Part shown: in pieces, positions 33,017 to 62,406 of the stretch | How the letters are laid out: every line of letters starts with the position of its first letter | Position numbering within the stretch: position 1 is the stretch's first letter | Source of the DNA: Polyangia bacterium | GTDB lineage: Bacteria > Myxococcota_A > Polyangia > JAAYKL01 | Direction: 5' to 3' | Assembly: GCA_050304755.1 (NCBI GenBank) | Contig: JBNLED010000235.1 | Location: 700 to 64,699 of the forward strand | DNA: 64,000 nucleotides | Notes under the pieces: generated by a model | What the model saw: only the letters and a program-made list of their open reading frames with translations | Told to the model about the DNA's origin: nothing | The model's database searches: none | Made by a program: the position numbers and the translations under genes

Positions 33017-34591
33017 ATGAAACTCTCAATGCTTTTTCTCATGGTGTGGCTGCTCTCTTTGCTGGGAGGGTGCCAGAAGGCCGAAGAGTCCGCCCCGGCA
33101 GACGGGGGCGATGAATCCACGGATACCGGCGGTTCGGACGGCGATACCGATAGCGACGGTGACGCCGATACCGACACGGACGCTGACGGTGATACGGACG
33201 CCGATACAGACAGCGACATGGACACCGATACAGACACGGACGGCGATACAGACACAGACGGCGATACAGACACAGACACGGACGCCGACGGCGATACGGA
33301 TGCTGATACCGACACGGACGCCGACGGAGACACGGACGCCGATGGAGACACGGATACCCTCACCGCAGACCCGGGGCTGGTGGACGTCCCCCTGACGAGC
33401 GCGGTGACGGACGTTCAGCCGATGACCGGGATGGTGCTGTGGAACGATCACCCGGACAGCGGATCGGAGGCGATCGCCCTCGAGTACTCCTATATGGCGT
33501 TCGACGATATCGCCGTCGACGCCGATCCTTCCGCCTGGCGCTGGGACGGAGTGGAAGGGTTGCTGGATGATATCGCCTCCCACGACCACCAGGCGGTGCT
33601 CCGCTTCTACTACGTCTACCCCGGATCGCCGACGACGGTCCCCGGCTACATCAAGGCGCTCGATGACTATACCGAGACAACCGCCGACTCCGAGGGCCGC
33701 CCCACGGGTTTTCCGGACTGGTCCCATCCGGAGCTCCAGGCGTTCACCAAGACCTTCTACTCCGAGCTCGCCGCCCGCTACGACGACGACGAGCGGCTCG
33801 CCTTCCTGCAGGTGGGGTTCGGCCTCTGGGGCGAGTATCACATCTACGACCCCGGCGAATCCCTGGGAGAGAACTTCCCGGACATGGCCTACCAGGAGGA
33901 GTTTTTCCGCCATCTCGAGGCCGCGTTCCGCACACTCCACTGGAGCATCTCCATCGACGCCGCCGATGGTTCCAACACCCCCTTCGAAGCGTTGCCCGAG
34001 CTCAAGGAGATCCCGTTCGGGCTGTTCGATGATTCATTCCTCCACGAGGACCACGGCGACTACAACAAGGAATGCTTCGACTTCTTCGGCGCCGAAAAGC
34101 GGCTCGCCTCCCCGGTGGGGGGAGAACTCAGCTACTTCACCGACTATGATCAGCAGCACGCGCTGGATCTCCCTTCCGGCCCCCACGGGATCCCCTTCGA
34201 GACCCTGGCTGGCGAGTACAACGTCACCTACATGATCGGCAACGACCAACCGGACTATCACCCCTTCGACCGGATCCGCGACGCCGGCATGGCCCTGGGG
34301 TATCGCTTCCGGGTGCGATCCTTCCGGGCCTCTTCCTCCCGCTCCCTCGTCGCCGTGGAGAACACCGGGATCGCCCCCATCTACTATGATGCGTACGTCG
34401 CGGTGGACGGCGTCCGCTCTCCCGACTCCCTGAGGGAGTTGCTCCCCGGCGACCGCCGCGAATACGAGATCCCGGCGGGCGGGGCCGAGCCCGTCCTGAC
34501 GATCGAATGCGACAGGCTCCTTTCGGGACAGCGCATCCAGTTCGACGCGGACCTGCCGGAGGGCGAGCTCAAGAGGTCACAGGAGCAGTAA
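33017..34591 (+). CDS. Lipoprotein with (Asp-X)n stalk and DUF4832-type putative glycoside hydrolase domain
   Basis: Lipobox LLGG-C; acidic repeat; LRFYYVYPG, QVGFGLWGEYH and LGYRFRV..VENTGIAPIYYD. Confidence 0.75.
   Translation: MKLSMLFLMVWLLSLLGGCQKAEESAPADGGDESTDTGGSDGDTDSDGDADTDTDADGDTDADTDSDMDTDTDTDGDTDTDGDTDTDTDADGDTDADTDTDADGDTDADGDTDTLTADPGLVDVPLTSAVTDVQPMTGMVLWNDHPDSGSEAIALEYSYMAFDDIAVDADPSAWRWDGVEGLLDDIASHDHQAVLRFYYVYPGSPTTVPGYIKALDDYTETTADSEGRPTGFPDWSHPELQAFTKTFYSELAARYDDDERLAFLQVGFGLWGEYHIYDPGESLGENFPDMAYQEEFFRHLEAAFRTLHWSISIDAADGSNTPFEALPELKEIPFGLFDDSFLHEDHGDYNKECFDFFGAEKRLASPVGGELSYFTDYDQQHALDLPSGPHGIPFETLAGEYNVTYMIGNDQPDYHPFDRIRDAGMALGYRFRVRSFRASSSRSLVAVENTGIAPIYYDAYVAVDGVRSPDSLRELLPGDRREYEIPAGGAEPVLTIECDRLLSGQRIQFDADLPEGELKRSQEQ
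33137..33358 (+). repeat. (Asp-X)n coding repeat, about 74 aa
   Basis: DGDTDSDGDADTDTD... alternating Asp. Confidence 0.95.
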
Positions 34592-34659
34592 TGACGCTAC
34601 TTCGGCAGGCCGCGGTCGCGCCCCCAGGTTACCGTCGGGCGATCGGAAACCTCGGAGAT

Positions 34660-34880
34660 ATTGAAGAAGGGGGGATCGCCTATCAATACCAGGATGGAAG
34701 CACGCCGAAGGGACAACGAACGAAGAGTATCGACGCCTTTCAATCGGGTTTGGGAGAGGTCTTTCATCAGTCCGAAAGCCGGCGGTCTCGGTTTGAACCT
34801 GACGGCCGCGGATTATCTGATCCACAAGGACCCCTGGTGGAACCCCACTGTCGAGGATCAAGCGCCGGATCGCGCGGAGG
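34660..34880 (+). pseudogene. SNF2-family helicase C-terminal domain remnant
   Basis: [19 protein letters not shown], frameshift near 34760, then [37 protein letters not shown]. Confidence 0.85.
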
Positions 34881-34931
34881 ACGACGCCGGTTGTAGTGGG
34901 ATCACCTTGAGCGCTGGACGCGAACCGCCGG

Positions 34932-37608: not shown

Positions 37609-39516
37609 ATGCAACCTGTCATGAATAGCGAGGTAAAAGAGAAAATGTCGTTGATATCTTCGATGGAAGTGAGTGCAAGATTGATCTGGGTTCTCCTCAC
37701 GGTAGCAATACTGGCGCAATGCGGAGGTGATGATTCGAACGATACGAAAAAGCCTAACGCCTCGAAGGACAAGGATTCTGAAACCGCTACCGACACCAAT
37801 GACACCGACACCGGCTCGGGGGACTCGAACATCGAGTACCAGCAGGCCCTGCTCATCGATGACTTCGAGGATGGGGACTATGTACCGCTCGTCGGCAACG
37901 GATGGTACACCTATGACGATTCCAATGACGAAGGCGCCTCCACGGTGACCGTCACCGAAGAGGATGATCAGGTGACCGCCACCGGTGAGGGATACGAATC
38001 CGAGCGGTCGCTTGCCGTGAGCTACGCGCTCGACCAGGGAGACTGGCAGTACGACCCCTACGTCGGCTGGGGAGTCAACCTCGGCGATGAGGAGACGCCG
38101 TATGATGCCTCCGTTTTCGGCGGCGTCACTTACATGTACAAAGGAAACGCCCACATCACGATGGTGCAGATTTTAGATGTGACCGATTGGGACGATTACC
38201 ACGTTACCGTACCGGCGGCGGAACAGTGGACCCGCGCCACTCTGCCCTTCACCGATTTCGCGCAGGACGGGTGGGGGAGGCTCGTGGCGTTCAACCTCGA
38301 GAATACGGTCAACCTCGGCTGGCAGGTCAAAGGCGCCACCGGCGACGAAGGCGAGGTCCTCATCGACGACGTCGCTTTCCTGGAATCCATCGACGCCGAG
38401 ACGGACACGGATCTGATCATACACGACCCGGAGCCCCCCGAGGAGGAGACCCTCGACAGCCTCGAAATCGACAATCCGTTACAGGCGCTAGCCATGGAAA
38501 CGCTGGACAAGGGATACAACATCACCAACTGGCTGGAGGAAGATAAATTTGAATCGTATAAATACGATGAAACCTATGTCAACGCGCTGGCGGACAACGG
38601 GTTCAAAGCCCTCAGGCTGCCCATCGACCTCGATCTGTACATCGCCGATCGCGACGCCCACCTCGAGGGGGATGCGGATTTCGCCATCGAGGAGGTGCTC
38701 TTCGAGATCCTCGACAACTTCGACCAATGGACCGCGGCGACGGGTATGAGCCTTACCATCGATTATCATCAGTACGACAATTCCTTTGATATGAGCAATG
38801 ATCGGTACATGGACGCGGTGGTTCGGCTCTGGACCGCGGTGGCCGGCCATTTTGCCGACAGTCCGCGCGTCGACCTCTTTTACGAGATCATGAACGAGCC
38901 CGAGCTCGCCGGTGGGGTCGACGCGGTTGATCAATCCGATTGGACCGACTTCGCCACAGAGATCATCGACGGTATCCGGAGCGCGGACACCACCCACACG
39001 ATCCTCTTCGGCGACGTGAGCTGGAACGCCATCTCTCCGCTCATCCGGCGCGACCCGTTCGACGACGACAACATTATCTACGTTTTTCATTTCTACGAGC
39101 CGTTCGTGTTCACCCACCAAGGTGCGACCTGGAGCGGCATGGGCACCGTCAGGGACATCCCCTACCCCTATTCGAAGGATCGCTGGTCGGAATACTCCTC
39201 GGACTTCGGATTCTCACCCAACACCGAATCGTGGATCATCTCCGCGCTCAACCAATATTACCGAGAAGGTTTCAAATCATGGATGAAAAACCAAATTATC
39301 GATGCCAAACAGTGGGCAGTCGACAACAATGTGCCGGTGATCTGCAACGAGTTCGGCGCCTATGATCGCTCCAGCACCAAAGAGGACCGCGTTCGCTACA
39401 CCACCGACCTCGTGGATATCTTCGAAGAGCTGGAGATCCCCTGGCAGCATTGGTTCATGACCGTAGACGATGACGGCGAGATGGACCCGGACCTGAAAGA
39501 GGCGTTCGATTTGTAA
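37609..39516 (+). CDS. Lipoprotein: CBM11/CIA30-like module plus GH5 endoglucanase
   Basis: ILAQ-C lipobox, short acidic linker, LLIDDFEDGD..WYTYDD, and GH5 catalytic YEIMNEP and VICNEFG, HFYEPFVFTHQG; exact start uncertain. Confidence 0.88.
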   Translation: MQPVMNSEVKEKMSLISSMEVSARLIWVLLTVAILAQCGGDDSNDTKKPNASKDKDSETATDTNDTDTGSGDSNIEYQQALLIDDFEDGDYVPLVGNGWYTYDDSNDEGASTVTVTEEDDQVTATGEGYESERSLAVSYALDQGDWQYDPYVGWGVNLGDEETPYDASVFGGVTYMYKGNAHITMVQILDVTDWDDYHVTVPAAEQWTRATLPFTDFAQDGWGRLVAFNLENTVNLGWQVKGATGDEGEVLIDDVAFLESIDAETDTDLIIHDPEPPEEETLDSLEIDNPLQALAMETLDKGYNITNWLEEDKFESYKYDETYVNALADNGFKALRLPIDLDLYIADRDAHLEGDADFAIEEVLFEILDNFDQWTAATGMSLTIDYHQYDNSFDMSNDRYMDAVVRLWTAVAGHFADSPRVDLFYEIMNEPELAGGVDAVDQSDWTDFATEIIDGIRSADTTHTILFGDVSWNAISPLIRRDPFDDDNIIYVFHFYEPFVFTHQGATWSGMGTVRDIPYPYSKDRWSEYSSDFGFSPNTESWIISALNQYYREGFKSWMKNQIIDAKQWAVDNNVPVICNEFGAYDRSSTKEDRVRYTTDLVDIFEELEIPWQHWFMTVDDDGEMDPDLKEAFDL

Positions 39517-39539
39517 CCCAGGGAGACTTGTAGAGACCT

Positions 39540-40857: not shown

Positions 40858-42231
40858 ATGAGACGACTGGTTTGTCTATGGGCTGTAGTCTGCGTGGTGC
40901 AGATTTCTTGCGCGGAGAGCGATCCCTCGAATAGTGGGGATACATCTTCGGAAACTTCGTGGTCGACCGATGTTGGTGGAGACGCTGATTCAGATACCGA
41001 CGCGGACGCCGATTCAGATACGGACGCGGACGCTGATACGGATACGGACAGCGACAGCGACACCGACAGCGACAGCGACACCGACAGCGACAGCGACGCG
41101 GATTCGGATACCGACGCCGATGCCGACAGCGACGCGGACTCGGATGCCGACACGGACACGGACAGCGACGCGGACTCGGATGCCGACACGGATACGGACG
41201 CTGACAGCGACGCGGACTCGGATGCCGACACGGACACGGACGCAGACGGCGACGCGGATGCTGATTCGGATGCCGACACGGATGTGGATACAGACGCCGA
41301 CACGGATGTGGATACGGACGCCGACACGGATGTGGATACGGACGCCGACACCGATGTGGATACGGACGCCGACACCGATGTGGATACGGACGCCGACACG
41401 GATGTGGACACGGACGCCGATGTGGTCAGGAGCGCCGGCTGCGGCAAGACGCCCACGCTCGAGAACAGGAGCACCATCACTATTCAGAGCAGCGGCACGA
41501 GCCGCCGTTACATTTTGTGGTATCCCGACAATTACGACAATAATCTGCCGCACCGGTTGGTGATCGCCTACCACTGGTGGTCCGGCAGCGCGGAGCAGGT
41601 CGTCGACTGCCACAGCGAAGGGATTGATTGTTACACGACACAGAGTCCCTTCTATGGGCTTTGGGATCTTTCGGAGGGCAGCACTGTCTTCGTCGCACCC
41701 GACGGAATCGACGCCGGTTGGGCTAATACGGGCGGCCGCGACCTGACGTTTACCGACGATATTCTCGACCAGGTCGAAAACGATCTCTGTATCGATGAAA
41801 GCCGCATTTTCGCGAACGGGTTCAGCTACGGCGGCGGCATGTCCTACGCTATAGCCTGTGCTCGTGCGGATGTCTTTAGGGCCGTGGCGGTTTACGCCGG
41901 CGGGGAGCTCAGCGGTTGCGAGGGAGGCAACACGCCCATCGCGTACTACGCCTCACACGGTCTCGACGATGGGACGTGCACCCCGGACATGGGAAGATCG
42001 CTGCGCGATCACTTCGTCCAGGTCAACGGCTGCACGCCGCAGAATCCGCCCGAGCCCGCGGACAACAGCGGCACGCACATCTGCACGACCTACGAGGGGT
42101 GCTCGGCCGGGCACCCGGTCCGCTGGTGCGCGTTCGACGGCAGCAACGGTCACGACCCGTCGCCAAAGGACCCGGGACAGTCCACGACATGGAATCCTCA
42201 AGAGGTTTGGACTTTCTTCACACAGTTCTAA
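40858..42231 (+). CDS. Lipoprotein with (Asp-X)n stalk and CE1 feruloyl-esterase-like domain
   Basis: VQIS-C lipobox; [24 protein letters not shown] nucleophile elbow and GHDP. Confidence 0.85.
40981..41421 (+). repeat. (Asp-X)n coding repeat, about 147 aa, ending in 24-bp DADTDVDT units
   Basis: [11 protein letters not shown]...DVDTDADT repeated. Confidence 0.95.
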
Positions 42232-42262
42232 ATGTTTCTCGGGACCTCGGGACGGAGGGGAC

Positions 42263-46997: not shown

Positions 46998-47599
46998 AGC
47001 CTGTCCTCCTCCATCACCTCGAGGAGATCAGGATTCTGATTCAGGATGACTCTGAGCTCGCGATACGCGGTCTTCAGCCTCGCCTTTATCGTATTCCGCG
47101 ACGTCTCCGTGAGGTCGGACACTTCCCTCACGGTATAACCGTAGGCCAAATGGAGCAACAGCGGAACGCGCCGCTTCTCCGGGATATGTTTCATTTTGTA
47201 AATCAGCATCTCAATTAGTTGTCGCCGCGAGGCGGCAATTTCGGGCGTCTCGAGATGTATGCCATCCTGCTCCTTCAGCGACATGAACATCTCGTTCTTC
47301 CTTTTCTCCTTCTTGCTTTCCTTCGTCGCCGTGCGATAGGCGATCCGTTCTGCCCACGCCTCAATGGTTCCGAGCCCTTTGAAGCTGTCCAGGCTCTTGA
47401 ACACCTGGAGGGCTGCGATCTGCGCGACATCCTCAGCCTGCCTTCCGTTCCCCAACACCAACCAGACAATCTTCAATATCCGTGGGTAGAGTCTACAGAA
47501 CAGCTTCTCCTCGGCCTTGCTGTCCGTCAGGGCCGATTGTGCGAGCTGGAGATCATTTAGGGAGATGGGTATGCCGACATTCATTATTTCATCATACAC
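46994..47599 (-). CDS. ECF sigma-70 factor
   Basis: AEDVAQIAALQVFKSLDSFKG, AWAERIAYR and GYTVREVSDL..NTIKARL. Confidence 0.88.
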   Translation of the reverse strand: MYDEIMNVGIPISLNDLQLAQSALTDSKAEEKLFCRLYPRILKIVWLVLGNGRQAEDVAQIAALQVFKSLDSFKGLGTIEAWAERIAYRTATKESKKEKRKNEMFMSLKEQDGIHLETPEIAASRRQLIEMLIYKMKHIPEKRRVPLLLHLAYGYTVREVSDLTETSRNTIKARLKTAYRELRVILNQNPDLLEVMEEDRL

Positions 47600-49605: not shown

Positions 49606-51051
49606 ATGAAACAAGAATTCACACCATTAATACTTGCCGCAGTGGTCCTGTTCGGCTGTACCTCGAACGAAGGCGAGCCGGACGGCGGCATCGGCGACAC
49701 TAGCGCAGCGGATGCGGATACCGACACGGATGCCGACGCCGATACCGACACCGATTCCGATACCGACACCGATTCCGATTCAGACGCTGATACTGACGTC
49801 GACTCGGATTCCGACACCGATACCGACACCGACGCCGATTCCGACACGGATTCCGACGCCGACGCCGACACCGACACCGACACTGACGCCGATACCGACG
49901 CTGATAGCGACACTGACGTCGACACTGACGCCGACACCGACGCCGATACCGACGCTGATAGCGACACTGACGGCGACACTGACGCCGACACCGACACGGA
50001 TGCCGACACCGACACCGACACCGACACAGACGGTGACACCGACGCCGATACCGACGCTGATGCAGACACCGAAACGGATACCGGCACGGGGATGCAGAAC
50101 GACACCGGCACCGGTGTCGGGGAGTGTGTCGACGATCGCGCAGCTTCGGGGGGGAGCGGTCAAGTCACCCAGGTCGACCGTGGAACCTGGGGCGCGGACG
50201 GCGTCCCGAGCTATGTCAACATGTATATCCAAGTTCCCCCGACCCTGCCGAGCAACCCCCCCATTGTGGTGGCCTGCCACTCCTGCGGGACCCCCGTCCA
50301 GGGGTACATCGGTGCAGTCACCAGAGTCCGGGAAGCGGCGAACAACATCGGTTTCATTATGATTTTCCCGGAGGCCACGGATCGCAACTGCTGGGACGTG
50401 GGGACTGACCAATCCCTCACCCACGACGGCGGCGGGGATACCCAGGCCGTCGCCCAGATGGTGCAGTACGTCATCTCGGAATACAACGGCGATCCAGAAC
50501 GGGTCTATATCATGGGGGGGTCCTCGGGGGCGATGATGACCCAGGCCATGCTGGCGGTATATCCCGATATCTTCAAGGCGGGCTCGGCGAGGGCCGGGGT
50601 TCCTGCCGGCTGCTGGGCGGACGGCTACAGCGACTCCAATCAGTGGGGCGGCGTCTGCGCGGGGGGCAACTCCAACAGGACCGCCGAGGAGTGGGGGGAT
50701 CTGGCGAGGGGGATGTATGCAGGGTATGACGGCCACCGTCCCAGGGTCCAGATCTTCCACGGCGTGAACGATCCGACCATCAGCTACAACAACTTCGGGG
50801 AATCCATCGAACAGTGGACGAATGTCCTAGACCTGGACGCCGCCCCGAGCTCCACCGACAGCATCACCACGTCGGTCACCAACTATGACCGTCAGTTCTG
50901 GACAGACGACTGCGGCTATACCGTCTTCGAGGCGTGGTCCGCCCCGAACGAGGATCACTCCTTCGACTATGAGGAAGAGGCCATCCTCGCCTTCTTCGGC
51001 CTCGACGAATTCCGTTGCATCGACCCCCAGATTGAGATGTGCGGACCTTAA
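49606..51051 (+). CDS. Lipoprotein with (Asp-X)n stalk and CE1 acetylxylan-esterase-like (PHB depolymerase family) domain
   Basis: LFG-C lipobox; [26 protein letters not shown] and FHGVND. Confidence 0.88.
49711..50082 (+). repeat. (Asp-X)n coding repeat, about 124 aa
   Basis: [17 protein letters not shown]... Confidence 0.95.
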
Positions 51052-51053
51052 AC

Positions 51054-51175: not shown

Positions 51176-53953
51176 ATGCGAAGAATATCGGGAATAATGA
51201 CGAGAAGGAACGGACCGCATTGGGCGCTGTACGCGGCCCTTTGGCTCGCGTTCGGGTGTGCTGCGGAGGAGGGATCCAACGACGCCGGGACGGACACCGC
51301 CTACGGCGATGCCGACACCGATTCCGACTCGGACACTGATTCCGACAGCGACACCGACACGGATACCGATGCGGATGCCGACACCGATTCCGACTCGGAT
51401 TCGGACGCCGATTCCGACACGGACGCCGATTCGGATACCGACGCTGATTCGGATACCGACAGTGACACGGACATCGATTCCGATTCGGATTCGGACATGG
51501 ACACCGACACCGATACGGACACCGACGGGGACACCGATGCGGACGCGGATACCGACGCGGACGGGGACGCCGACGCCGACGCCGACACCGACGCGGACAC
51601 CGATGGCGACACCGATGCGGACACGGACGGGGACACCGATGCGGACACCGACACCTATACGGAACCGCCCGTAAAGAGCGTCGATGTCACCGGCAGCGCC
51701 GGTGAGACGCTCCGGATCACCGCATACGGGGACTACATGGTGCGGATCCAGGCCATCGAGGCCGGGGATACTTTCTACCCGGACGACCAGTATGAAATGG
51801 TGGAACGGCATGATTGGGACGGCGGGCTGAGGGTCGTCGACGAGGAGACCTCGATGACGGTGAGGACCACCGCCCCCGACGGCGTCTCCCTCTCCATCAC
51901 GAAGGATCCGCTGCGCATCGCCTTCTCCATCACCGGCCAGTCCGAGCCCGTGCTGACCGAGAGCGAGGGGATATCCTGGGGCGAATCGATAACGGAGTCC
52001 TTCACACCGGTGGCGGGGGAGCACTTCGCGGGCCTGGGGCACGAGGCGTACGGGCGGGTCGAGAGCCTCGATCGGGCGGGGAGCAGCCTGACCGTCCGCA
52101 GCGGCAGCGAGGGGGCGCTCGTCGCGCCGTTCTACCTGTCATCTCGAGGTTACGGTGTCTTCCTCAACACGACCTTCACCCACACCATCAACCTGGGCCG
52201 CAGCAACACCTATTCCCTCTCTATCAACGGGGAAGGGTTCGGCGGCCAGATGGACTATTTCTTCATCGCCGGCCCCGAGCTCACCAAGGTGGTGGACCGC
52301 TACACCCAGCTCACCGGGCGCCCCCGGCTCCCCCAACGCTCCCTCTTCGGCCTGCACCTCTCGGACAAATCCGATCCGAACAACGACGGCGAGTCCTGGT
52401 GGAAGCAGATGATCACCAGCCACCGGGACGCCGGCTTCGCCTTCGACCACCAGGTCAACGACAACGCCTGGCGGGCCTCGAACGAGGCGGTCTCCGGACA
52501 GAAGAACTCCTGGTTCGCTTGGCGGGCCGACCAGTTCCCGGACCCGGCGGGATACAAGCGGTGGTGCGACGAGAACGGGGTCACGGTGACCCTCGACCTC
52601 AACCGGCCGGGCATCCCGTTGAACCCGAGCTGGAACAACAGCTTCAGCATCTCGGGCACCAATGATTGTCCCGATTTCACCAACCCCGATACGAGGCAGT
52701 GGATATGGGATCTGTTCTTCGACAACGCGTTCGATCCGGCCCTCGGCTACCCCGGCGACGCGATCTGGCTCGATGAGTTCGACTACCCGGACCACAACCA
52801 CTCCACGACCCTCTGGAGCGGCAAGCGCTGGGCGGAGGAGTCCATCAACTACCACCTCAACCTGCAGAAGTCCTGCGTCGCGGAGGGCTGGGACCCGGCC
52901 ATGGGCGAGTCCAAGCGCCCCTACTTCTGGAGCCGCGGGATCACCGCCGGCGCCCAGCGCTGGGGAGCCCACTGGACCGGCGACCTGGACAGCAACTGGA
53001 GGGACATGGCCTACCAGGTGCGGGCGCTCCAGTCCTCGGGGATCTCCGGATTCCCCTACTTCAACCACGACGCGGGCGGTCACTTCAATGTATCGGTCAG
53101 CGAGGACAACCTCTACCGGCAGTGGGATATCGCGTTCGGCAGCTTCACCCCGATCTGGAAGCCCCACGGGCCAGGGCACAAGCGGTGGCCACTCCAGCGC
53201 AACGGCACATGTCAGGACACCGCCCGGACCTACATCACCGTCCGGTACGAGATGATTCCCTTCATTTACTCCTACGCGCGCATCGCCCAGGCCACCGGCG
53301 TCCCCATGGCCCGGTCCATGTTCCTCGAGGATCGGGAGAACGAGACCGCGTGGGAACGCGACATGCAGTACATGTGGGGACGGGAGATGCTCGTGGCCCC
53401 CAACTGCTCCGACGGCGGCAACAGCGTCTCCGTGTGGTTCCCGGCGGGGGACTGGTACGACTTCTGGGACGACACGAAGTACGGCGGCGACACGACGGAG
53501 AGCATCAGCGCCCCCACCGGGCATCTTCCGGTCTTCGTCAAGGCCGGCGCCATCGTTCCGATGGCCCCCTACGCGCTCTCCACCTTCTTCATCCCCGCGG
53601 ACGAGCTCCGGGTGCACATCTACACCGGCGCAGACGGCACCTTCGAGCTCTATGAGGATGACGGGGTCACCGAGAAGTTCAGGACCCAGGGGGAGTCCCG
53701 GTTGACCGAGATCACCTACACGGACCAGGATCTCGGCGTGGAGATCAGCGCGGCCCAGGGGACCTACGACGGTGCGCCCGACAACCGATCCTACCAGATC
53801 ATCTATCACGGACTCTCCGGCGAGACGCCGTTGTTCCTGGACGGCGAGCCCGTCAGCGCGACATGGGATGCCCAAAACGGATTGCTGACCGTCGATGTCC
53901 CCGCCAGGGGAGTGGACAGCGCCTTCAAGGTCTCCGGCACCTCCGGCAAGTAG
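51176..53953 (+). CDS. Lipoprotein with (Asp-X)n stalk and GH31 glycosidase (with DUF5110-like C-terminus)
   Basis: AFG-C lipobox; [27 protein letters not shown] (nucleophile), HWTGD (acid/base), HDAGG and [12 protein letters not shown]. Confidence 0.9.
51308..51655 (+). repeat. (Asp-X)n coding repeat, about 116 aa
   Basis: [13 protein letters not shown]... Confidence 0.95.
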
Positions 53954-54144: not shown

Positions 54145-54418
54145 ACAGAAGAACGCCGCCGTAGTCTGCGGAGGGGCGCAAACGTCTACGGCGAGAACTT
54201 CGATTTCGAATTGTGAGTCCAAGACCTCGCCGTAGCCTCGCCCAGCGAGCGGAGGCGGACACGTTACCAAAACTTGACGCATCGACTTTCGGCAGGCAAC
54301 GCCGCGTCAAGAGCTTCTCCATTTGTAGAAATTCCAAGGGATTATCCGTTCGTTTTTGGAAGACGGGGGCACTGCTAAACTGACAGGTCGACCGGATGAA
54401 AGGAGCCCCCCAAGAAAG

Positions 54419-55729
54419 ATGAACCGACACGATTCGAGAGGCATTGAGAACCGCGGGAGGAGCGCCGTGCTCATCGCGACATTGTGCTCGTGCCTGTTGG
54501 CTCGAGTCTCCCACGCGGGTGAGGGGGATGCCTCTTCGAGCGGATCCCCGGAGCTGCAAGGACGCATCGACGAGACCACCGACCGGCGGCTCTGGACCGA
54601 CGACCGGGATCAGGTGGCCGTGGGATATCGCTACGGATTCTATCTGCAGACCCTCGACGAGCGGTTCCGGCTCCAGCTCAACGGGCTCTTCAAGCTGAGA
54701 TACCACTACACCAATCAGGTCGTCGCCCCCGCGAGGCGGGGATTCGTCTCCCGGGTCTCCAACCCCGCCTCCGCCATCCTGTTCTTCGGGCACCTGTTCA
54801 CCAAACGACTGACCTATATGATGATGCCGGATTTCGGGAACGGCGAGTTCAAGGTCTACTACATGTATTTCGTGTACGAGGCGGTCCCCAAAAAGCTCTA
54901 CTTCCGGGTGGGCCAGGGCAAGAAGCCCTATGCCCGCTTCTTTTTGACCTCCCCCATCGAGCGGGCGTTCGTGCTGGACGCCACCGCGTACAACTACGCG
55001 AAGACGGGGCTCCCCATCGGTCACGGCGTCGATATCGGAGCGGAGATCGGCAACAACTTCGTCGTCGCGAAGGGGCTCGAGTGGACCCTCGGGGTTTACA
55101 ACGGCACCAGCGCCATGCCGATCGTGACCGGGGTGGTTCATCCCCATCAACCCGATGCGAGCGGTGAGCTTATTCCGGTGACGGAAGCCCCCCTCGAGGA
55201 GGTCACCGTCACCAACTATCCCGCGAAGATGAAGCCCACGCTCATCGGACGCTTTGGATACAACTGGGGCGGCCTGAAGGGGTACTACGCGTCGGATCAG
55301 GACGGCGGTCCTCCGAGGGGTGGGATCGCAGCGTCCATACAGGCGGACTTCGACGGGGACGGGGACCAGCGGAGTTTTCTGCGTTGGGAGGCCGACGGCA
55401 TCTTCAAGGCATACCACCTGACCCTGAGCGGCGGCATCAACTTCGTCTACAGCGCCGAAGGCCACTTCTACGAGTCACCGGAGCTGATGGGGTACGCGAT
55501 GCACGGGCAGGCCGGGTACGCGATCAAGGGGTGGGTGGAGCCCGTATTCCGCTACAGTTACGTCAATCCCCCGGGGGCGGACAACGCGATCTCCGAGTTC
55601 GCAGGGGGGCTCGGGCTGTTCTTCTTCAAATCGCAGTTCAAATGGGACAACAACTTCGGGATTGACTGGTATCGCTATCAGCGCAGCATGGACTACACCT
55701 ACGTCTCCCAATTCCAGGTCTATTTCTGA
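54419..55729 (+). CDS. Outer membrane porin-like protein (OprO/OprP-like)
   Basis: Signal peptide, YRYGFYLQT..FRLQLNG, amphipathic beta strands and C-terminal QFQVYF beta-signal. Confidence 0.7.
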   Translation: MNRHDSRGIENRGRSAVLIATLCSCLLARVSHAGEGDASSSGSPELQGRIDETTDRRLWTDDRDQVAVGYRYGFYLQTLDERFRLQLNGLFKLRYHYTNQVVAPARRGFVSRVSNPASAILFFGHLFTKRLTYMMMPDFGNGEFKVYYMYFVYEAVPKKLYFRVGQGKKPYARFFLTSPIERAFVLDATAYNYAKTGLPIGHGVDIGAEIGNNFVVAKGLEWTLGVYNGTSAMPIVTGVVHPHQPDASGELIPVTEAPLEEVTVTNYPAKMKPTLIGRFGYNWGGLKGYYASDQDGGPPRGGIAASIQADFDGDGDQRSFLRWEADGIFKAYHLTLSGGINFVYSAEGHFYESPELMGYAMHGQAGYAIKGWVEPVFRYSYVNPPGADNAISEFAGGLGLFFFKSQFKWDNNFGIDWYRYQRSMDYTYVSQFQVYF

Positions 55730-55764
55730 TAATAGCCGCGATCTTTGAGGGGGGGTCCGGCAGG

Positions 55765-57321
55765 TTATCGTCCGTAGACGCTCACGATGCTCGCCTGAAT
55801 CGCCTCATCGGTTTCGTCGGTGGTCTCCCCGGCGATGACCGCCCCCTCGGAGAACCCGCCGGAGCCGTTCGGATCCCCCGCCCCCCCCTCGCCGAGGGCC
55901 AGCCCGCCCTCCTGCTGGAGGGGAGAGTATCCCCCCTCGGGCAGGGTCGGCAGATCGACATGGACCGAAAGCGTCCCCTCCTGCGCGTTCCCGGCCTTGA
56001 CCTGCCAATGGGCGACCCCGTCGTGCTTGAAGAGGACCGTCACGATCTCGTGGGGCACGGACGGGTTGGGGTTCTCCCCGGTCTCGGTGCAGTTGCACTC
56101 CCCCGGCCGGTCGCACGCCGCCCCTGAGTCGCACTTCGCGACGTTCCCGGCGTACACCCCCTGCTCCCAGTCGACCATGGGCCACGGCCCCTCCCCCTCC
56201 CCCTTCGACCAGAACTTGATCTTCGAGAAGTTGAGCGCGCTCAAGGTCCCGGGACCAGTGTAGTGGATCTGGTCGCCCGTGTTGCCGTAGTTGAAGCAGC
56301 AGTTATCGTTCACATACTTGGCGTGGAAGATGGAGTAGGTGGTCTGGGGCTCGGCGCCGAGGGGCATGTTCGTGGTCTGATCCCGGTTCCTGAGGCACTG
56401 GGACCGATCCTTCCAGCTGCCCGCGGGTGGGAAGCCCTGCTCGAGGGCGATGGGGATCCGCGTCCCGTCGGACATCTCCCAATACTCGACATCCAACAGG
56501 TCGCAGGATTTCGGGGTGCCGGGCATGTTCCATTCCACGTCCCCCCGCCACATGTCGTTGGCGTTCTCGGTCTGGTCATACAGCGTGGTCAGCTTACACG
56601 CGGTGCCCGCGCAGAAGGACTCCAGGGTTGCCAGGTCCACGAGCCCGCCGGCGGACACGACGCCGATATCCATCTCCTGCTCATCCGAGGCGCGCAGCAC
56701 GGTGAACAGGGGACCATCGTAGTCCGCGAACAGCGCCCGAGTGAGGGCGTGGGCCGCCACGAAAGGGGTCCCCGCCGCGGCCGCGATATCGCCAGGGAGG
56801 GTGGGGACATCGGTATCCGCGTCCGTATCCGCGTCCGTATCCGCGTCTGTATCCGCGTCCGTATCCGCGTCAGTATCCCCATCGGCGTCCGTGTCCCCGT
56901 CTCCGTCAGTATCGGTATCGGTATCCGTGTCCGCATCAGTATCCGAATCACTGTCTGCGTCCGTGTCGGCATCGGCGTCGATATCCGCATCGGTGTCCGC
57001 ATCCGCGTCGCTGTCGGTGTCGGCATCGGCATCCGTATCCGCGTCGCTGTCCGTGTCGGCATCGGTGTCCGTGTCGGCATCGGTATCCGTGTCGGCATCG
57101 GTATCCGTATCCGCGTCGCTGTCCGTATCCGCGTCGCTGTCCGTATCCGCGTCGCTGTCCGTATCCGCGTCGCTGTCCGTATCCGCGTCGCTGTCCGTAT
57201 CACTGTCCGCATCGCCTGCGCCCGTGTCCGGACCATCGGCGCCGTCGTCCGAGGTTGCGCAACCGAACGCGAAGACGCCCACGATACAGAGATTCCAAAT
57301 CATCAGCTGGTCTTCTCTCAT
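55765..57321 (-). CDS. Lipoprotein with (Asp-X)n stalk and GH54 alpha-L-arabinofuranosidase B catalytic domain
   Basis: AFG-C lipobox; [38 protein letters not shown] and GFSEG. Confidence 0.85.
56809..57213 (-). repeat. (Asp-X)n coding repeat, about 135 aa, including five perfect 18-bp units
   Basis: TCCGTATCCGCGTCGCTG x5 at 57104-57193. Confidence 0.95.
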
Positions 57322-57571: not shown

Positions 57572-59356
57572 TCACGGCAGCTCCACCGCGCCCAGGTCAC
57601 AGGCGTCCGGGTCCCGGGTCTCCCCCCGCTGGTCCGTGACTTCGCAGCCGACGCCGGCCCCCAGCGCCGGGCTGCCGCCCCCAAGGAGGAGGGTCGGTGT
57701 CGGCCCGCCGTGGTCACCGGGCTCGGCATCGAGCAGGGGATCGGCGACGATAATGTCAGGCGTACATCGGTCCGACCCGGCGTCCCCGGATTCGCTCAGC
57801 CACTGCAACACGTGATCCCCCGTGCCCGTCTCGCCGCAGCTGTAGGCCTGGCCCCAGGGATTGCCCGCGCTGTTGTCGACGAAGATGCTGTTGTGCACCT
57901 CGAAGCCGCCGCCGAAGAGCGCCCCGCCATGCCCCCCCGCGAAATTCCGCGAGAAGGTGGTGTTGTTTACGATGACCGGCCCGCCGCTGCTAATGGCACC
58001 GCCGTAGGACTCGGCCTGATTTCCGTGGAGCGTGACATTCGCGAGGGTGCAGGTGGGCGCGCAGTCCAGATACAGACCGCCGGCGTGATTCTCGCTGGTG
58101 TTCGAGACGAGGCTCGACGCCCGGATGACGATCTCGCCGTTGCTGACCCGCATGCCGCCGCCGAGCCCCCCCTCGCCGACGGTGTTTTTCTCGACGAGCG
58201 TCCGATCGACCATCACCTGGTCCGGTGGATAGGCCCAGATGTAGACCCCGCCGCCGCTCCGGAGCCCGCGGTTGTTCCGGATCTTTGAGCCACATATCTC
58301 GATGAGGCCCCCCTCGTCGTCCTCGGGGCTTTCGGAGGCGCCGTCCGTCCCGATGGCCCCGCCCTCGCCCCAGCCGTTGTCGATGGTCTCGTTGTCCTCG
58401 AAGACGGAGTTGATCACCTGCAGGGGCGAGAGGAGGCTATAGACGGCGCCGCCGTAAAAGGAGCGGTTCCTCATGAACCGGCTGCCCACGATGGTCAGCG
58501 CGCTGCCGGTCCAGACCGACACCGCTCCGCCGCCGCGCCCGGCGGTGTTGTCCTCGAAGACGCAATCGCGGACCTCGACCCGGCTCCGCCAGTTGCCGGC
58601 CACGGCGCCGCCGATCCCGTCCGCCTCCTCGCTCGCCGGAGCGCTGCCGTTGATGAACCGCAGGTTGCGGACCGACAGGGAGCCGTTGCTCGGCGCCGAA
58701 AGGATACGGGTCGTCCCGCCGCCGTCCAGCGTGACATCTCCCGCCTCGCCGTCAACCACGGTCTCCGTCCCGGCCCCGATTTCGGCCCCGACGGAGATGA
58801 TGACCGGGGACGCACCGCAGTCGAAGGTGATGTAGCCCCCGGCGCCGACGGCCGCGCGGAGGGCCTCCTCGGTGCAGCTCTCGGGGGTGCCGCTCCCGAC
58901 GATATAGTGGGAAGAGGGAACCGGCCAGGGGTCCGGCTCATCGCAAATCCGCAACGGTCGCCCCTCCGTATCGGTTTCCGTATCGACTTCCGGTTCGGTA
59001 TCCGTGTCACCGTCGGTATCCGTATCACTGTCGGTGTCTATATCCGCATCGGTGTCGGCGTCGGTGTCTCCGTCTGCATCCACATCAGTGTCCGAATCGC
59101 TGTCTCCGTCCGAATCCGTATCCGTGTCGGCGTCGGCATCCGTGTCAGCGTCGGTGTCCGCGTCGGCGTCCGTGTCTGTGTCGGTGTCGCTATCTCCCGA
59201 GCCCACGGTCGTATCGGAGGCCGTTTCGAATTCCAAATCATTCTCAGACGGGTATTGGAAGGTGTCGCCGTGTTCCGCCTCTTTTACACCCTCGTCAGTA
59301 CAGGACACACTGTTCAAACCTATATGGAGTGTTAGTAGAATGGCCTTTTTCATCAT
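57572..59356 (-). CDS. Lipoprotein with (Asp-X)n stalk and right-handed beta-helix (Pmp-like GGA repeats, choice-of-anchor Q-like end)
   Basis: SVS-C lipobox; repeated N..GGA(V/I) and terminal DQRG..CDLGAVE. Confidence 0.75.
58967..59194 (-). repeat. (Asp-X)n coding repeat, about 76 aa
   Basis: [13 protein letters not shown]... Confidence 0.95.
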
Positions 59357-59678
59357 TTGGAAACAGCCCTCACTCTCGAGTAGTGCACCCGCCTGAATAA
59401 AAGGGGCGTGCGATTTTCGGCTATTTTGAGGCGAGTCCGCGTTTTTTTACCCGATACCTCGCGAAATATGCAGGGACTATCGAATCTGGTCGAGCAGCCC
59501 ATTGAAAAAACGGAGTCAATAGCCATTGTTTCTATTGCCAGATCAATGCCCCATTTAATCAAACGGAGTAGAAAATAACAACAAATCCGTGCCGGTACAA
59601 AATAGCGGGGGATTGAACCGACGCTCGGGAACCGTCCCCGCCTCTTGTGACGATGAGGGCGAGGCTTATACTATTAGA

Positions 59679-60692
59679 ATGTCGGGTTGCTCCCCGTTGA
59701 GGCGTCCCGCCTCTCTCCCAACCGCCAATCTATTGATAGGGATGGGCCTCCTCGCCGCGGTGGCCCTGGGGTGCGGGCAGATCGCCATCGAGAGGGTTGA
59801 CAGGAATTCCGACACGGCCACGGGCGCGGGGCTCGACGGTACGGATGCGGATACCGGCCCTGACGTAGACGCCGACACCGACGCGGATACCGATGCCCAC
59901 ACGGACACCGCCGATGCCTGTCCCGATCCGCTTCCGGGCGGGGTGTCCGCGATCGGCGGCTTGGAGGACTGGACACACTTCAATGATGCTGTCGTGACCC
60001 TGGAGGAAATCACCGGGCAGACCTTCACTCAGGCATGGAGAGCCGAGATGGTCGGGGGGATGACCGACCCCACGGGGACCCAGATGCTGCAGATGACAAT
60101 CAACGATATCGCCGCCGGCGATGTCCTGTTCGCGTCGTTCTGGATCCGCTGCGAGAGCGCAGCGGCAGGAGAATGCCGGACCGGGTTCGTTTTCGAGCTG
60201 GACGCGTCTCCCTGGAACAAGTCCGTTCAGTTTCACTTCACGATTGACGACACGTGGCGCCTTCACCAGATTCCGTTCGTCGCCGCCGCCGACCAGGCGG
60301 CCGGAGAGGTCGGCGGAAAATTCCGCCTCGGGTACGCCGATCAGGTGCTGCTGATTCATCCTCTAGACATCGTGAACTACCGGGACGCCGTCCCCATCGA
60401 ATGCCTCCCCCGATCGCCGGAGCTCACCGACGCGCTCGACATCTTCGCGATACCGGAGGAGACGGCCGTGGTGGGGGAGGAATATCGCTATCGATTGGAG
60501 ATGAACGGACCGGTCGGGGCATCGGTCACCGCAAGGGGGCTGCCGGCCTGGCTGGACTTAGACGGGGACGATCTGTTTCGGGGAACGCCCCAGGCGGGCG
60601 ACGCGGGCATCATCTCTGACATCTCCATCACCGCCGATGACGGCAACACCTCCGACACCGTGGCGTTCCAGCTGGAAGTCCTGAATCCGTAG
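59679..60692 (+). CDS. Non-catalytic lipoprotein: short (Asp-X)n, CBM-like beta-sandwich and Ig-like domain
   Basis: ALG-C lipobox; IAAGDVLFASFW..FVFE..PWNKS..W...IPF (CBM seen on GH10 enzymes, from recollection); GLPAWL..GTP Ig-like repeat; short repeat at 59835-59915. Confidence 0.65.
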   Translation: MSGCSPLRRPASLPTANLLIGMGLLAAVALGCGQIAIERVDRNSDTATGAGLDGTDADTGPDVDADTDADTDAHTDTADACPDPLPGGVSAIGGLEDWTHFNDAVVTLEEITGQTFTQAWRAEMVGGMTDPTGTQMLQMTINDIAAGDVLFASFWIRCESAAAGECRTGFVFELDASPWNKSVQFHFTIDDTWRLHQIPFVAAADQAAGEVGGKFRLGYADQVLLIHPLDIVNYRDAVPIECLPRSPELTDALDIFAIPEETAVVGEEYRYRLEMNGPVGASVTARGLPAWLDLDGDDLFRGTPQAGDAGIISDISITADDGNTSDTVAFQLEVLNP

Positions 60693-60963
60693 CCGGAACA
60701 CCGGCCGGACTCGGCGTCCACATCGGCTGCCTGGCGGTGATCGGTGGTGACCCGGTGGTTCATGGCCCCGGCCCCTCTTTCCGGCACCGGGTCGGGGTCG
60801 GGTGAATACAAAATCGGGCGAATACAAGATTCGCCCCTTCATTTATGCAGAATATTTCTATAAAACGTGACAAAATAGCCGCCAAGGTGAGCTAATCAAG
60901 AGCCGTACAACAACATAATATCGTAGAATGACTGCGAGACTCTTAATCTGTTTGGAGGAAAGA

Positions 60964-62406
60964 ATGAAACAATACACAATGTTGCCATTGACGCTGCTGC
61001 TGATCTTGTCGTGGACAGCAGGCTGCGGTGAAGAAGACCCGGGGGTAAGCACCGGGGACACCGGAACCGGCGCGTACACCGACACCGACACCGACACCGA
61101 CTCGGACACCGACGCTGATGCAGATGCCGACACCGATGCCGACGCCGACACCGACTCGGACGCCGACACCGATGCCGACGCCGACACCGACACCGACGCC
61201 GACACCGACTCGGATGCAGACACCGACTCGGATGCAGACACCGACTCGGATGCAGACACCGACTCGGATGCAGACACCGATGCGGATACCGACACCGACG
61301 GCGATACCGATGCGGATACCGACGCTGACGGCGACACCGATGCCGACACCGATGCCGACACCGATGCCGACACCGATGGCGACACTGACGCGGATACCGA
61401 CGCCGACACGGACAGCGATACGGACACGGGCACCGGAGCGGCTACGGATACGGGCGACGAGCAGTGCGAAGATATCGCGTACACCATGCCGCCGGAGCGG
61501 ACCCGCCTGATCGATAATCAATACACCGCCGATCCCTCCGCCCATGTGTTCGACTGCCGGCTCTTCTTCTTTCCCTCCCACGATCAGGACAACGCCGCAG
61601 GGTTCAACATGATTGACTACCACGCCTTCTCCCTCAACCAGAACGGCGACTTCGAGGATCACGGGGTGATCGTCAGCCTGGACGATGTGCCCTGGGCCCG
61701 GCAGTACGCGTGGGCACCGGACGCGGCCTACAAGAACGGTAAATACTATTTCTACTTCCCCGCAAAGGACAGCGGCGGCATCTTCCACATGGGCGTCGCC
61801 GTTGCGGATTCTCCGGAGGGACCCTACACGCCGGAGCCGGAGCCCATTCCGGGCAGCTACAGCATCGACCCCACGGTCTTCGTCGATGATGACGGACAGG
61901 CCTACATGGTGTTCGGCGGCAACTGGGGGGGACAGCTCGAGTGCTACGCCACCGGAGACTATGACCCTTCGAATTGCTCCGACGACAATGGAAACGGGGG
62001 CGCCGGGCAGCAAACCCCGCGGATCGCGAAATTCAAGGACAACATGCTGGAGTTCGACGGAGACGTCCAGGTGGTCCAGATTTCAGGCGGGGAGACGTTC
62101 TTCGAGGGGGCCTGGATGCACAAGTACAACGACACCTACTACCTCTCCTACTCCACCGGCCCCTCGTGCCAGATCATCTACGCCACCAGCGACAATCCCA
62201 TGGGCCCCTTCACCTACCAGGGAGTGGTCCTGCCCAGCCACAATTCAGGGTGGACCACCCACCACTCCATCGTGGAGTTCCAGGGCAATTGGTATCTCTT
62301 CTACCACGACTCCTCCTGCTCGGGGGGCGAGACCACGAAGCGCTGCGTCAGGTACGCTTCCCTCACCTACGGGGCGGATGGCTCCATCAACCGCGTCACC
62401 CCCTGA
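60964..62406 (+). CDS. Lipoprotein with (Asp-X)n stalk and GH43 (GH43_1-like) xylosidase/arabinofuranosidase
   Basis: TAG-C lipobox; YTADP, WAPD, SIDP, FFEG and [10 protein letters not shown]. Confidence 0.92.
61081..61428 (+). repeat. (Asp-X)n coding repeat, about 116 aa
   Basis: [15 protein letters not shown]... with 18-bp GACTCGGATGCAGACACC units. Confidence 0.95.

Follow-up and report, generated by a model that had tools for sequence, protein, structure and literature searches.

Nine genes in the second half of a 64,000-nucleotide stretch of DNA (here, the window; G+C content, ~60%), whose source is probably an uncultured myxobacterium of the class Polyangia, encode proteins in which a tract of strictly alternating aspartate and small residues (Asp-X, here DX) follows a lipoprotein-type signal peptide. 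This architecture is real, strongly non-random, and wider than an earlier note on the same DNA had claimed. That note had described an array of ten lipid-anchored, polysaccharide-active proteins that would form a surface display system distinct from polysaccharide utilization loci (PULs) and cellulosomes; the evidence gathered here does not show a distinct display system. The reading that we favor, with moderate confidence, is that of an anchored set of hemicellulose- and pectin-directed enzymes on disordered, polyanionic DX spacers, the spacer being a convention of the lineage and the outer surface of the cell the favored location.

A six-frame regular-expression search for (D-X)n≥6 over the whole window found such tracts in only nine open reading frames (ORFs), every time in the coding frame. 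Eight are long, at 66 to 148 amino acids (aa), one measures 12 aa, and they start 16 to 36 residues past the signal-peptide cysteine. The search confirmed the claims that nine of the ten proteins carry a tract, in frame and measured here at 12 to 148 aa, and that the glycoside hydrolase family 5 (GH5) protein P2 has none. The claimed span was also right, 33017 being the ATG of the first gene, P1, and 62406 the stop of the GH43 gene P10. Domains were assigned by Pfam, NCBIfam, and PDB sequence searches. The ten proteins, with CE standing for carbohydrate esterase and lipoprotein for a predicted one, are as follows.

33017..34591 (+), P1: lipoprotein (LLGG-C, Cys19) with a DUF4832-related, glycosidase-like TIM barrel and a beta-sandwich; DX tract of 74 aa at 33137..33358 (+).
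37609..39516 (+), P2: GH5 protein (Pfam Cellulase, 129 bits) with a weak CIA30/CBM-like N-terminal domain; no DX tract.
40858..42231 (+), P3: CE1-type feruloyl esterase lipoprotein (PDB 8jh8, feruloyl esterase, E of 9e-69); DX tract of 148 aa at 40981..41424 (+), ending in (DTDADTDV)x6.
48022..49599 (+), P4: GH105 lipoprotein (ASG-C) resembling unsaturated rhamnogalacturonyl hydrolases (Pfam Glyco_hydro_88, 165 bits); DX tract of 88 plus 30 aa, split by Glu-Ala, at 48175..48438 and 48445..48534 (+).
49606..51051 (+), P5: CE1 feruloyl/acetylxylan esterase lipoprotein (LFG-C; NCBIfam esterase_phb family); DX tract of 120 aa at 49711..50070 (+).
51176..53953 (+), P6: GH31 lipoprotein (AFG-C), alpha-xylosidase-like (Pfam GH31, 146 bits); DX tract of 116 aa at 51308..51655 (+).
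55765..57321 (-), P7: lipoprotein (AFG-C) with a GH54 alpha-L-arabinofuranosidase catalytic domain (Pfam ArabFuran-catal, 245 bits); DX tract of 136 aa at 56806..57213 (-).
57572..59356 (-), P8: beta-helix protein with a relaxed lipobox (SVS-C) and a C-terminal choice-of-anchor Q domain; DX tract of 66 aa at 58997..59194 (-).
59589..60692 (+), P9: lipoprotein (ALG-C) with a middle domain of no known family and a He_PIG Ig-like domain; DX tract of 12 aa at 59862..59897 (+), inside an acidic stretch of ~27 aa.
60928..62406 (+), P10: GH43 lipoprotein (TAG-C; Pfam Glyco_hydro_43, 113 bits); DX tract of 116 aa at 61081..61428 (+).

Selection on the tracts is evident from their codons. Across the eight long tracts, 447 of the 448 Asp-register codons encode Asp and one encodes Glu, and the Asp codons divide into 62% GAC and 38% GAT, against 64% and 36% in the rest of the window. 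The alternate positions hold Thr (198), Ala (138), Ser (67), Gly (26), Val (13), Met (3), and Ile (3); no charged residue, Pro, Asn/Gln, Leu, or aromatic residue occurs at X in these eight tracts. With shares of 44% Thr, 31% Ala, and 15% Ser, this is not an SD repeat proper. Because synonymous sites are at equilibrium while Asp is almost never replaced, purifying selection on the alternation must be strong; the pattern is not a fresh DNA microsatellite. The tract DNA consists of imperfect repeats (66 to 85% matching by Tandem Repeats Finder) with higher-order units of 18 to 54 nucleotides (nt), which point to growth inside each gene by duplication of such units, selection keeping the Asp register.

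In an AlphaFold2 model of P1, the tract has no secondary structure and a predicted local distance difference test (pLDDT) score below 50, beside a confident domain. Succinimide formation at Asp-X bonds has a tendency that runs inverse to the order T > A > S > G, and the same order among X residues might mean that an extracellular chain with a long lifetime has been selected to be chemically stable. The SD repeat of SdrC is experimentally disordered and highly extended and resists compaction through charge repulsion (PMC9881980), and by analogy the DX tracts are probably disordered and extended too. The 40-nm reach proposed in the earlier note is the contour length; a disordered chain would not be expected to span that distance from end to end.

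Clear CAZy-type domains are present in seven of the ten proteins (GH5, two CE1, GH105, GH31, GH54, and GH43), and these assignments were borne out by the Pfam, NCBIfam, and PDB scores. The best PDB relatives of P4 are YteR and other GH105 entries; P5 matches a feruloyl esterase (8iy8) and an acetylxylan esterase (5x6s) at E values of about 1e-56; and P6 scores 205 bits, under the cut-off, against the NCBIfam alpha-xylosidase model. The best protein homologues are 67 to 72% identical. P1 is less straightforward. Its Pfam DUF4832 score is sub-threshold (20 bits versus 29), and what speaks for the proposed label is a close homologue that NCBI names DUF4832, together with the glycosidase-like model. 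The protein belongs to a large family of uncharacterized exported proteins, with homologues up to 69% identical, and its model, built with 41 homologues, comprises a confident (beta/alpha)8 barrel and beta-sandwich (pLDDT above 90 for residues 121-520) that Foldseek matched to GH35, GH14, GH39-like, and GH36 folds. We describe P1 as a putative novel barrel, glycosidase-like in its modeled fold. Two carbohydrate-binding modules (CBMs) named in the earlier note were not confirmed: the supposed CBM11 of P2 corresponds to a CIA30 match of 17.9 bits, below threshold, and no PDB or NCBIfam match lies behind the one in P9. The linker of P2 is an acidic stretch of Ser, Thr, and Lys of ~45 aa. P8 matched generic Beta_helix, choice-of-anchor Q, and, weakly, rhombotarget A models, and in P9, whose true start is probably an internal Met, Pfam, PDB, and NCBIfam searches recognized no domain other than He_PIG. 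The PDB sequence search returned nothing for P1, for P9, or for the product of a neighboring gene at 54356-55729. The label of polysaccharide-active protein thus suits the seven CAZy-type proteins and probably P1, and has no domain support for P8 (a generic beta-helix) and P9 (He_PIG).

The claim of ten type II signal peptides likewise stands in part. Seven N termini (P1, P4, P5, P6, P7, P9, and P10) pass a PROSITE PS51257-type lipobox pattern, and three, those of P2 (LAQ-C), P3 (QIS-C), and P8 (SVS-C), pass a relaxed pattern only; for P2, cleavage by signal peptidase I could equally be the case. Judged from these motifs, lipid attachment at the signal-peptide cysteine is probable. Within +3 to +6 of it, Asp or Glu occurs in all ten. 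Acidic residues right behind the +1 Cys constitute a lipoprotein export signal for surface exposure that is not known to be defined outside Bacteroidota. The inner-membrane signal of Myxococcus xanthus, Lys at +2, is absent from all ten, and the +7 Ala extracellular-matrix signal is found in one.

Beyond the window, the architecture proved to be common. A word-indexed search with the N-terminal 180 aa of P7 returned 1221 proteins at E≤1e-3, and an exhaustive phmmer search of 1.84 billion cluster representatives returned 3512 at E≤1e-3 and 415 at E≤1e-10. A lipobox-type N terminus followed by a DX tract was present in 152 of 244 retrieved sequences, the median Cys-to-DX spacer being 20 aa and the median tract ~80 aa. 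The few source names among the word-search matches are "Deltaproteobacteria," Polyangia, or Myxococcota metagenome-assembled genomes (MAGs). Scanning a single genome of each species for the DNA pattern of (Asp-[Thr/Ala])x10 yielded at least 117 stretches and at least 38 strict lipobox-plus-DX ORFs. Among the matches listed, 27 of the 38 strict cases came from MAGs labeled Myxococcota, Polyangia, Myxococcales, or "Deltaproteobacteria," and all 38 came from metagenome assemblies, none from named cultured isolates. Lipobox-plus-DX proteins are widespread, in thousands of clusters, mostly from Myxococcota MAGs. In several database proteins, including P0384, P0397, P0411, P0431, and P0453, a small Cys-rich module (C..G..C.C...C..G..C) lies between the lipobox and the DX tract.

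The partner domains are not confined to carbohydrate-active enzymes (CAZymes), so the idea of a CAZyme-specific stalk was not upheld. CAZyme partners of lipobox-plus-DX N termini include GH2, GH5, GH8, GH11, GH12, GH16, GH29, GH43, GH45, GH53, GH54, and the polysaccharide lyase (PL) family PL1, as well as Cip1-like, BD-FAE, CBM3, CBM6, and CBM35 domains; by a rough count across databases, CAZymes make up ~20 to 25% of lipobox-plus-DX proteins. The same architecture is found with Lcl_C/DUF1566, the commonest, and with FGE-sulfatase, cyclophilin, CotH, MopE, Exo_endo_phos (nuclease/phosphatase), PI-PLC, RCC1, peptidase C1, and CAP domains. DX-CAZyme lipoproteins stand in arrays elsewhere too: locus L099 has three in a row (GH43, beta-helix, and CBM6/35-GH43), L033, from a MAG labeled "Polyangia bacterium," has an esterase, a GH2, and an esterase, and L040 has a DX-GH54. 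None of the fetched loci contains close relatives of the window enzymes, the only matches being L033 to esterase P3 (38% identity) and L040 to the GH54 protein (28%). L099 and L103 (JAFGXQ01...) share their accession prefix with the Zodletone order o__JAFGXQ01, a non-predatory Polyangia lineage reported to be enriched in these GH and PL families. The paper on the Zodletone non-predatory Polyangia makes no mention of lipoproteins or Asp repeats, and the literature searched contained no description of (Asp-Thr/Ala/Ser)n lipoprotein tethers, which is limited evidence of novelty.

The strongest comparative argument comes from the position of the tract relative to the anchor. In the Myxococcota MAG OZ245034.1 (L037), a DX tract directly precedes a MYXO-CTERM anchor (36.9 bits on TIGR03901, with a cut-off of 20), and in this large protein DX runs amounting to some 330 aa are scattered through a region of 860 aa. 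In MAG CSMAG_306 (L081), a DX tract precedes a borderline MYXO-CTERM (19.4 bits on TIGR03901), the cargo being a Cys-rich repeat protein. Giant proteobacterial proteins (L013, from Sphingomonas; L054, from Phyllobacterium, with a tract of ~1050 aa; L014; L015; and L113) have DX right after a Gly/Ala-rich transmembrane helix, so that the position beside the anchor is shared by unrelated lineages. The occurrence of DX next to three types of anchor, lipobox, MYXO-CTERM, and transmembrane helix, argues for an anchor-proximal spacer; staphylococcal SD repeats likewise adjoin their LPXTG anchor.

Orthologous enzymes carry other tethers. The DX tract is absent from all 120 of the best GH54 homologues (61 to 72% identical; those named are Polyangia or Myxococcales). 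Most of the complete ones are lipoproteins, and their linkers are composed of 26% Gly, 15% Ser, 14% Ala, 12% Thr, and 3% Asp. Their catalytic domains have a median isoelectric point (pI) of 5.95, versus 4.33 for P7. The homologues of P1 are more varied and include lipobox proteins with DX (P0257, 40 aa), with other acidic linkers, or with short linkers, proteins with a type I signal, and versions with a type IX secretion system (T9SS) tail (PF18962); where the linker is acidic, so is the domain. The ten window proteins have pI values of 4.0 to 4.7 even without their tracts, against 5.4 to 10.6 for the other, mostly cytoplasmic, window proteins. This range of linkers, together with the acidic domains, places the DX tether at the acidic end of a series of interchangeable low-complexity tethers, one that accompanies a general acid shift of exported proteins, the cause of which may be salinity or divalent cations.

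The earlier note had also proposed a single portable lipobox-plus-stalk module, attached to many different enzymes. In sequence, the ten proteins have mutually unrelated signal peptides and post-Cys spacers, and the longest exact DNA strings common to tracts of different genes, 14 to 24 nt, do not exceed those of controls in which Asp codons and X codons were shuffled within each tract. By this exact-string test, the window tracts bear no trace of a recently shared or gene-converted module, and the proposal is not supported. One observation nevertheless keeps it alive.

A contig from a sister MAG (JBNLBU010000079.1 of GCA_050303475.1; L121) is 99.975% identical to window positions 41293-56997. 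It breaks away abruptly at 41293 (L121 15705), inside the P3 tract, where a different spacer and a different, canonical lipoprotein signal peptide (...LLAAGC) stand ahead of the final 44 codons of the tract and the same catalytic domain, with a shorter tract of ~58 aa. The upstream genes differ as well (peptidase C14-barrel, anti-sigma, and ECF sigma). At its other end the contig stops inside the P7 tract, at about window position 57180. The four mismatches in the shared 15.7 kb (41295, 41298, 48441, and 49919) all fall in DX tracts, which make up 8.9% of that block; the lengths of the P4, P5, and P6 tracts are identical in the two independent assemblies. The break at 41293 could be a recombination between DX tracts or an assembly chimera, and since the same contig ends in the GH54 tract and all mismatches lie in tracts, a chimera is at least as likely.

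The mechanism that we propose begins with Sec export and lipidation at the signal-peptide Cys, as the motif suggests. A disordered, polyanionic spacer would then hold the enzyme to the membrane, with 16 to 36 residues of Gly, Ser, Thr, Asp, and Glu followed by up to 148 aa of DX, that is, strict alternation of Asp with a small residue (Thr > Ala > Ser > Gly > Val). A negative charge at every second residue would keep the chain expanded, soluble, and non-sticky toward anionic lipopolysaccharide or polysaccharide, so that the enzyme would sweep a volume away from its anchor. The putative site is the outer face of the outer membrane, or vesicles. The locus as a whole would represent a debranching and de-esterifying set for plant hemicellulose and pectin, beside extracytoplasmic function (ECF) sigma/anti-sigma pairs. 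The DX spacer would be a convention beside membrane anchors in mostly uncultured Polyangia and other Myxococcota, not specific to CAZymes, and an acidic counterpart of the Gly/Ser-rich tethers of soil Polyangia and the polyserine tethers of Saccharophagus.

Several observations weigh against this account. Most of the enzymes act on chain ends or oligosaccharides (GH31, GH43, GH54, GH105, and the esterases) and could equally be periplasmic, and GH5, the sole likely endo-acting enzyme, is the one without a DX tract. No component for surface export of lipoproteins was recognized in the window. Three of the ten lipoboxes are non-canonical, and lipidation and localization are predictions. Finally, charge repulsion alone leaves strict alternation, as opposed to any Asp-rich mixture, unexplained.

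A periplasmic location is the best of the alternatives, though we consider it rather unlikely. Lipoproteins sorted by the Lol system would face the periplasm, from the inner leaflet of the outer membrane or from the inner membrane, and trim imported oligosaccharides, DX would provide reach and solubility, and the candidate barrel encoded at 54356-55729, a possible porin gene in the operon, would serve uptake. The mainly exo-acting or debranching families of the window suit such a role; the DX partners elsewhere, however, include endo-enzymes (GH5, GH8, GH11, GH12, GH45, and PL1), for which contact with polymers is a necessity. Gram-negative lipoproteins go by default to the periplasmic side of the outer membrane, and the absence of a +2 Lys, the single +7 Ala, and the lack of a surface-export factor in the window agree with that fate. 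Secretion is implied, in contrast, by the T9SS sorting domain (PF18962) of some P1-domain homologues, and in other Myxococcota DX adjoins MYXO-CTERM, a cell-surface anchor. Disordered N-terminal linkers occur in about half of the Escherichia coli outer-membrane lipoproteins (10.1101/2021.01.05.425367), but spacers of 100 to 150 residues with 50 to 74 negative charges would seem to exceed the apparent need of a periplasm of ~25 nm.

It is improbable that the tract has a specific chemical or sorting role in addition to spacing, as a Ca2+/Mg2+ brush, a signal for surface or vesicle export, or a substrate of O-glycosylation. The 447-of-448 register with only small residues at X is stricter than a generic spacer needs, but the same families in related Polyangia work with uncharged Gly/Ser linkers, and GH5 and P9 do without a long tract. 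Overlapping DxDxD motifs would resemble Ca2+-binding loops. EF-hand-like and TSP3 motifs are Ca2+-binding loops with DxDxD, and a brush of this kind might bridge to lipopolysaccharide or strip Ca2+ from pectin gels. As for export and glycosylation, the acidic residues at +3 to +6 might be comparable to the Bacteroidota signal, SdgA and SdgB act on SD repeats, and SD repeats of staphylococci are reported to be glycosylated (PMC3794999, PMC8561734); against both, and against the metal brush, the cluster has no linked gene for a glycosyltransferase, for a dedicated translocon, or with a metal-related role.

That the tracts are neutral low-complexity expansions, by-products of compositional (e.g., saline) adaptation, or assembly artifacts is very improbable: linker and domain acidity do co-vary across lineages, the tracts do contain higher-order DNA repeats, and they are assembly trouble spots at which the sister contig ends, diverges, and mismatches, but background synonymous usage with a single non-Asp codon in 448 is incompatible with neutrality, the tracts are in frame in nine genes and of the same length in P4, P5, and P6 of an independent assembly, and their constant position relative to anchors recurs in thousands of protein clusters, so that the codon analysis (Asp in 447 of 448 at background GAC/GAT) largely refutes the idea.

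A bolder version of the surface reading, which we offer as a long shot, would make DX more than a passive spacer. It would serve to recognize or retain lipid-anchored proteins in a route of display, on the surface or on vesicles, that is specific to Myxococcota and shared by N-terminal lipobox and C-terminal MYXO-CTERM anchors, and it would form a polyanionic, Ca2+/Mg2+-responsive brush on the outer membrane that positions a lawn of hemicellulases and pectinases. If it were true, recombination between tracts could reshuffle anchors and enzymes, as the N terminus of the sister-assembly feruloyl esterase may show.

The tethered enzymes lie in a locus that is only in part the array described earlier. 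The series of ten genes is broken up by an HU gene, an aldehyde dehydrogenase gene, two genes for probable outer-membrane barrels of no known family, the genes of an ECF sigma/anti-sigma pair, and ~3.5 kb in which no ORF is convincing; the tight cluster spans 48.0 to 62.4 kb. Neighboring features are as follows.

32021..32947 (+): ECF-type sigma factor of 308 aa with a long N-terminal extension (Pfam Sigma70_r2, Sigma70_ECF, Sigma70_r4_2), directly upstream of P1, the first DX lipoprotein gene.
45633..47599 (-): ECF sigma factor (46994-47599) and FecR/TPR anti-sigma factor (45633-46997), assigned by Pfam and NCBIfam, divergently upstream of the GH105-CE1-GH31 operon (P4 to P6).
54356..55729 (+): protein without known family, with a signal peptide and a C-terminal ...QVYF, a candidate barrel judged from its sequence, encoded in the same direction as P4 to P6.

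A signal peptide is present in the products of both 44465-45622 (+) and 54356-55729 (+), and their last residues are ...RF or ...YF, an ending typical of outer-membrane beta-barrels. Neither matched Pfam or NCBIfam, and the latter also had no PDB match; it may be an outer-membrane beta-barrel serving as an uptake porin. The GH5 gene, of lower G+C content, is flanked by two gaps without convincing ORFs, at 35.4 to 37.6 kb and 39517-40857, and may be a later insertion. The first, 2.2 kb long (35.36 to 37.6 kb) with a lower G+C content (~55%) and no Rfam match, contains at 35472-35690 about 10 to 11 tandem copies of the core CTG[CT]GGGAAGA with a 21-nt period, 115 to 330 bp upstream of where an HU-like gene (34932-35357, -) starts; the copies may be protein-binding sites on one helix face. 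The second, 1.3 kb long, separates the GH5 gene from the feruloyl esterase gene P3. Rfam searches (at the gathering threshold over the whole window and in E-value mode over 35.3 to 40.9 kb) and ARAGORN returned no match.

Exact-sequence look-ups of P3, P5, P7, P10, and GroEL gave no match, whereas housekeeping proteins of the window are present in GCA_050303475.1 and GCA_050299055.1, whose accession prefixes lie close to that of the L033 MAG, a merely suggestive proximity. Housekeeping and regulatory genes occupy the first half of the window, the ten ORFs under study starting from 33.0 kb. They include genes for an acetyl-CoA synthetase/GNAT fusion, PFK, GroEL, aconitase, an XPB-like helicase, CusCBA, sigma-54 activators, and ECF sigma factors. 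The helicase gene (18304-20890, -) encodes an XPB/ERCC3-like protein with a damage-recognition domain and adjoins a gene for a DUF790 (Bax1-like) nuclease, a pair known mainly from archaea. The CusCBA-type efflux operon (21106-28505) encodes a 787-aa membrane-fusion protein with three HMBD, two YHS, and one TRASH domain, all metal-binding, and adjoins a gene for a small, separate YHS/TRASH protein. At 28588-29454 (-) lies a gene for a class I S-adenosylmethionine (SAM)-methyltransferase-domain protein, for which an upstream in-frame ATG would give a lipoprotein-type signal peptide (...LMVSGC). Such a predicted location is unusual for a SAM-methyltransferase; the product is the sole lipobox protein in the window besides the ten, and it has no DX tract.

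Although no new principle of polysaccharide utilization is revealed, the tract has several uses. For uncultured, non-predatory Polyangia, gene counts are all that is known of how plant and algal polymers are degraded, and DX, present in over 3500 clusters and beside three kinds of anchor, offers a sequence marker for an exported, probably surface-tethered proteome. It is also a natural polyanionic stalk, with as many as 74 charges, open to direct comparison with the Gly/Ser and polyserine tethers of orthologous enzymes. Short-read assemblies break or are joined wrongly at DX tracts, and MAG catalogs probably undercount such proteins or list them in truncated form.

Among known systems, the earlier note rightly reported no SusC/D, dockerin/cohesin, or T9SS tail: Pfam and NCBIfam searches of ~40 window proteins gave no SusC-like or SusD-like match, as a PUL would, no dockerin or cohesin match was found in the window proteins, and neither the ten nor any other window protein has the C-terminal Por_Secre_tail domain of T9SS cargo. 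Nor does any of them match TIGR03901, as a MYXO-CTERM/myxosortase substrate would; membership in all four of these classes is rejected. For the Slam/type XI secretion system, the two barrel candidates at 44465-45622 and 54356-55729 matched no neighboring DUF560 translocon in Pfam or NCBIfam, and a distant Slam/DUF560 relationship is possible for them. The comparison with staphylococcal Sdr stalks was apt, in that NCBIfam aligns the tracts to the SD region of SdrC, SdrD, ClfA, and ClfB, at 35 to 92 bits over the repeat region only, versus cut-offs of 999 to 2500. Both sides have an alternating Asp-small dipeptide repeat of 60 to over 150 residues between anchor and functional domain. They differ in that X is Thr or Ala more often than Ser in the window, in the N-terminal lipobox of a diderm versus a C-terminal LPXTG joined to peptidoglycan, in the cargo of enzymes versus adhesin A-domains, and in the lack of a nearby SdgA/B-like glycosyltransferase. 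With scores far under the cut-offs, no homology, no LPXTG, and no C-terminal hydrophobic tail, membership in the Clf/Sdr family is rejected.

Lipid-anchored enzymes and flexible tethers have closer precedents. Saccharophagus degradans 2-40 has dozens of GH, PL, and CE enzymes with a lipobox, including GH43, GH31, GH105, GH5, GH53, and CE1, and its Chi18B has a polyserine linker of ~110 aa between lipobox and catalytic domains, with proposed outer-membrane placement (PMC3124978; see also Howard et al. 2004 on the lipobox carbohydrases, as cited there). The shared plan of lipobox, long low-complexity linker, and CAZy domain, with no SusC/D and no cellulosome, is found in P3 to P7, in P10, and, given its GH-like fold, in P1, as an architectural class rather than a homologous family. 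The Saccharophagus linkers are polyserine or Glu-Pro, with no charged dipeptide repeat, and the host is a marine gammaproteobacterium; in the window nearly all enzymes of the locus bear the tract, which is under strict register selection. The GH54 proteins of other Polyangia and Myxococcales have an orthologous domain (61 to 72% identity), mostly a lipobox, and a linker of 80 to over 300 aa, differing in its Gly/Ser/Ala/Thr composition and in near-neutral domains. These Gly/Ser-linked lipoproteins and the Saccharophagus carbohydrases are precedents that tell against a distinct display system. The outer-membrane lipoproteins of E. coli share the order of lipid anchor and then unstructured tether, and their linkers are short (about 10 to 40 aa) and compositionally unremarkable. 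About half of them have such disordered N-terminal linkers (El Rayes et al., 10.1101/2021.01.05.425367). A CAZyme held by a lipid anchor at the surface of a diderm has a precedent in the Klebsiella pullulanase PulA, which type II secretion (T2SS) places there according to work cited in PMC11980579. The T2SS also places lipidated MYXO-CTERM proteins on the cell surface (PMC11980579), and M. xanthus sends lipoproteins to its extracellular matrix (PMC3222651). As is predicted for those of the window, MYXO-CTERM proteins have a lipidated Cys as their anchor, with a disordered region next to it, and are displayed at the cell surface; they differ in a C-terminal anchor processed by myxosortase (GC motif, transmembrane helix, and Arg-rich tail). 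Set among these systems, the DX tether is an acidic, apparently undescribed form of a known device, the flexible tether of bacterial enzymes that are anchored to a membrane.

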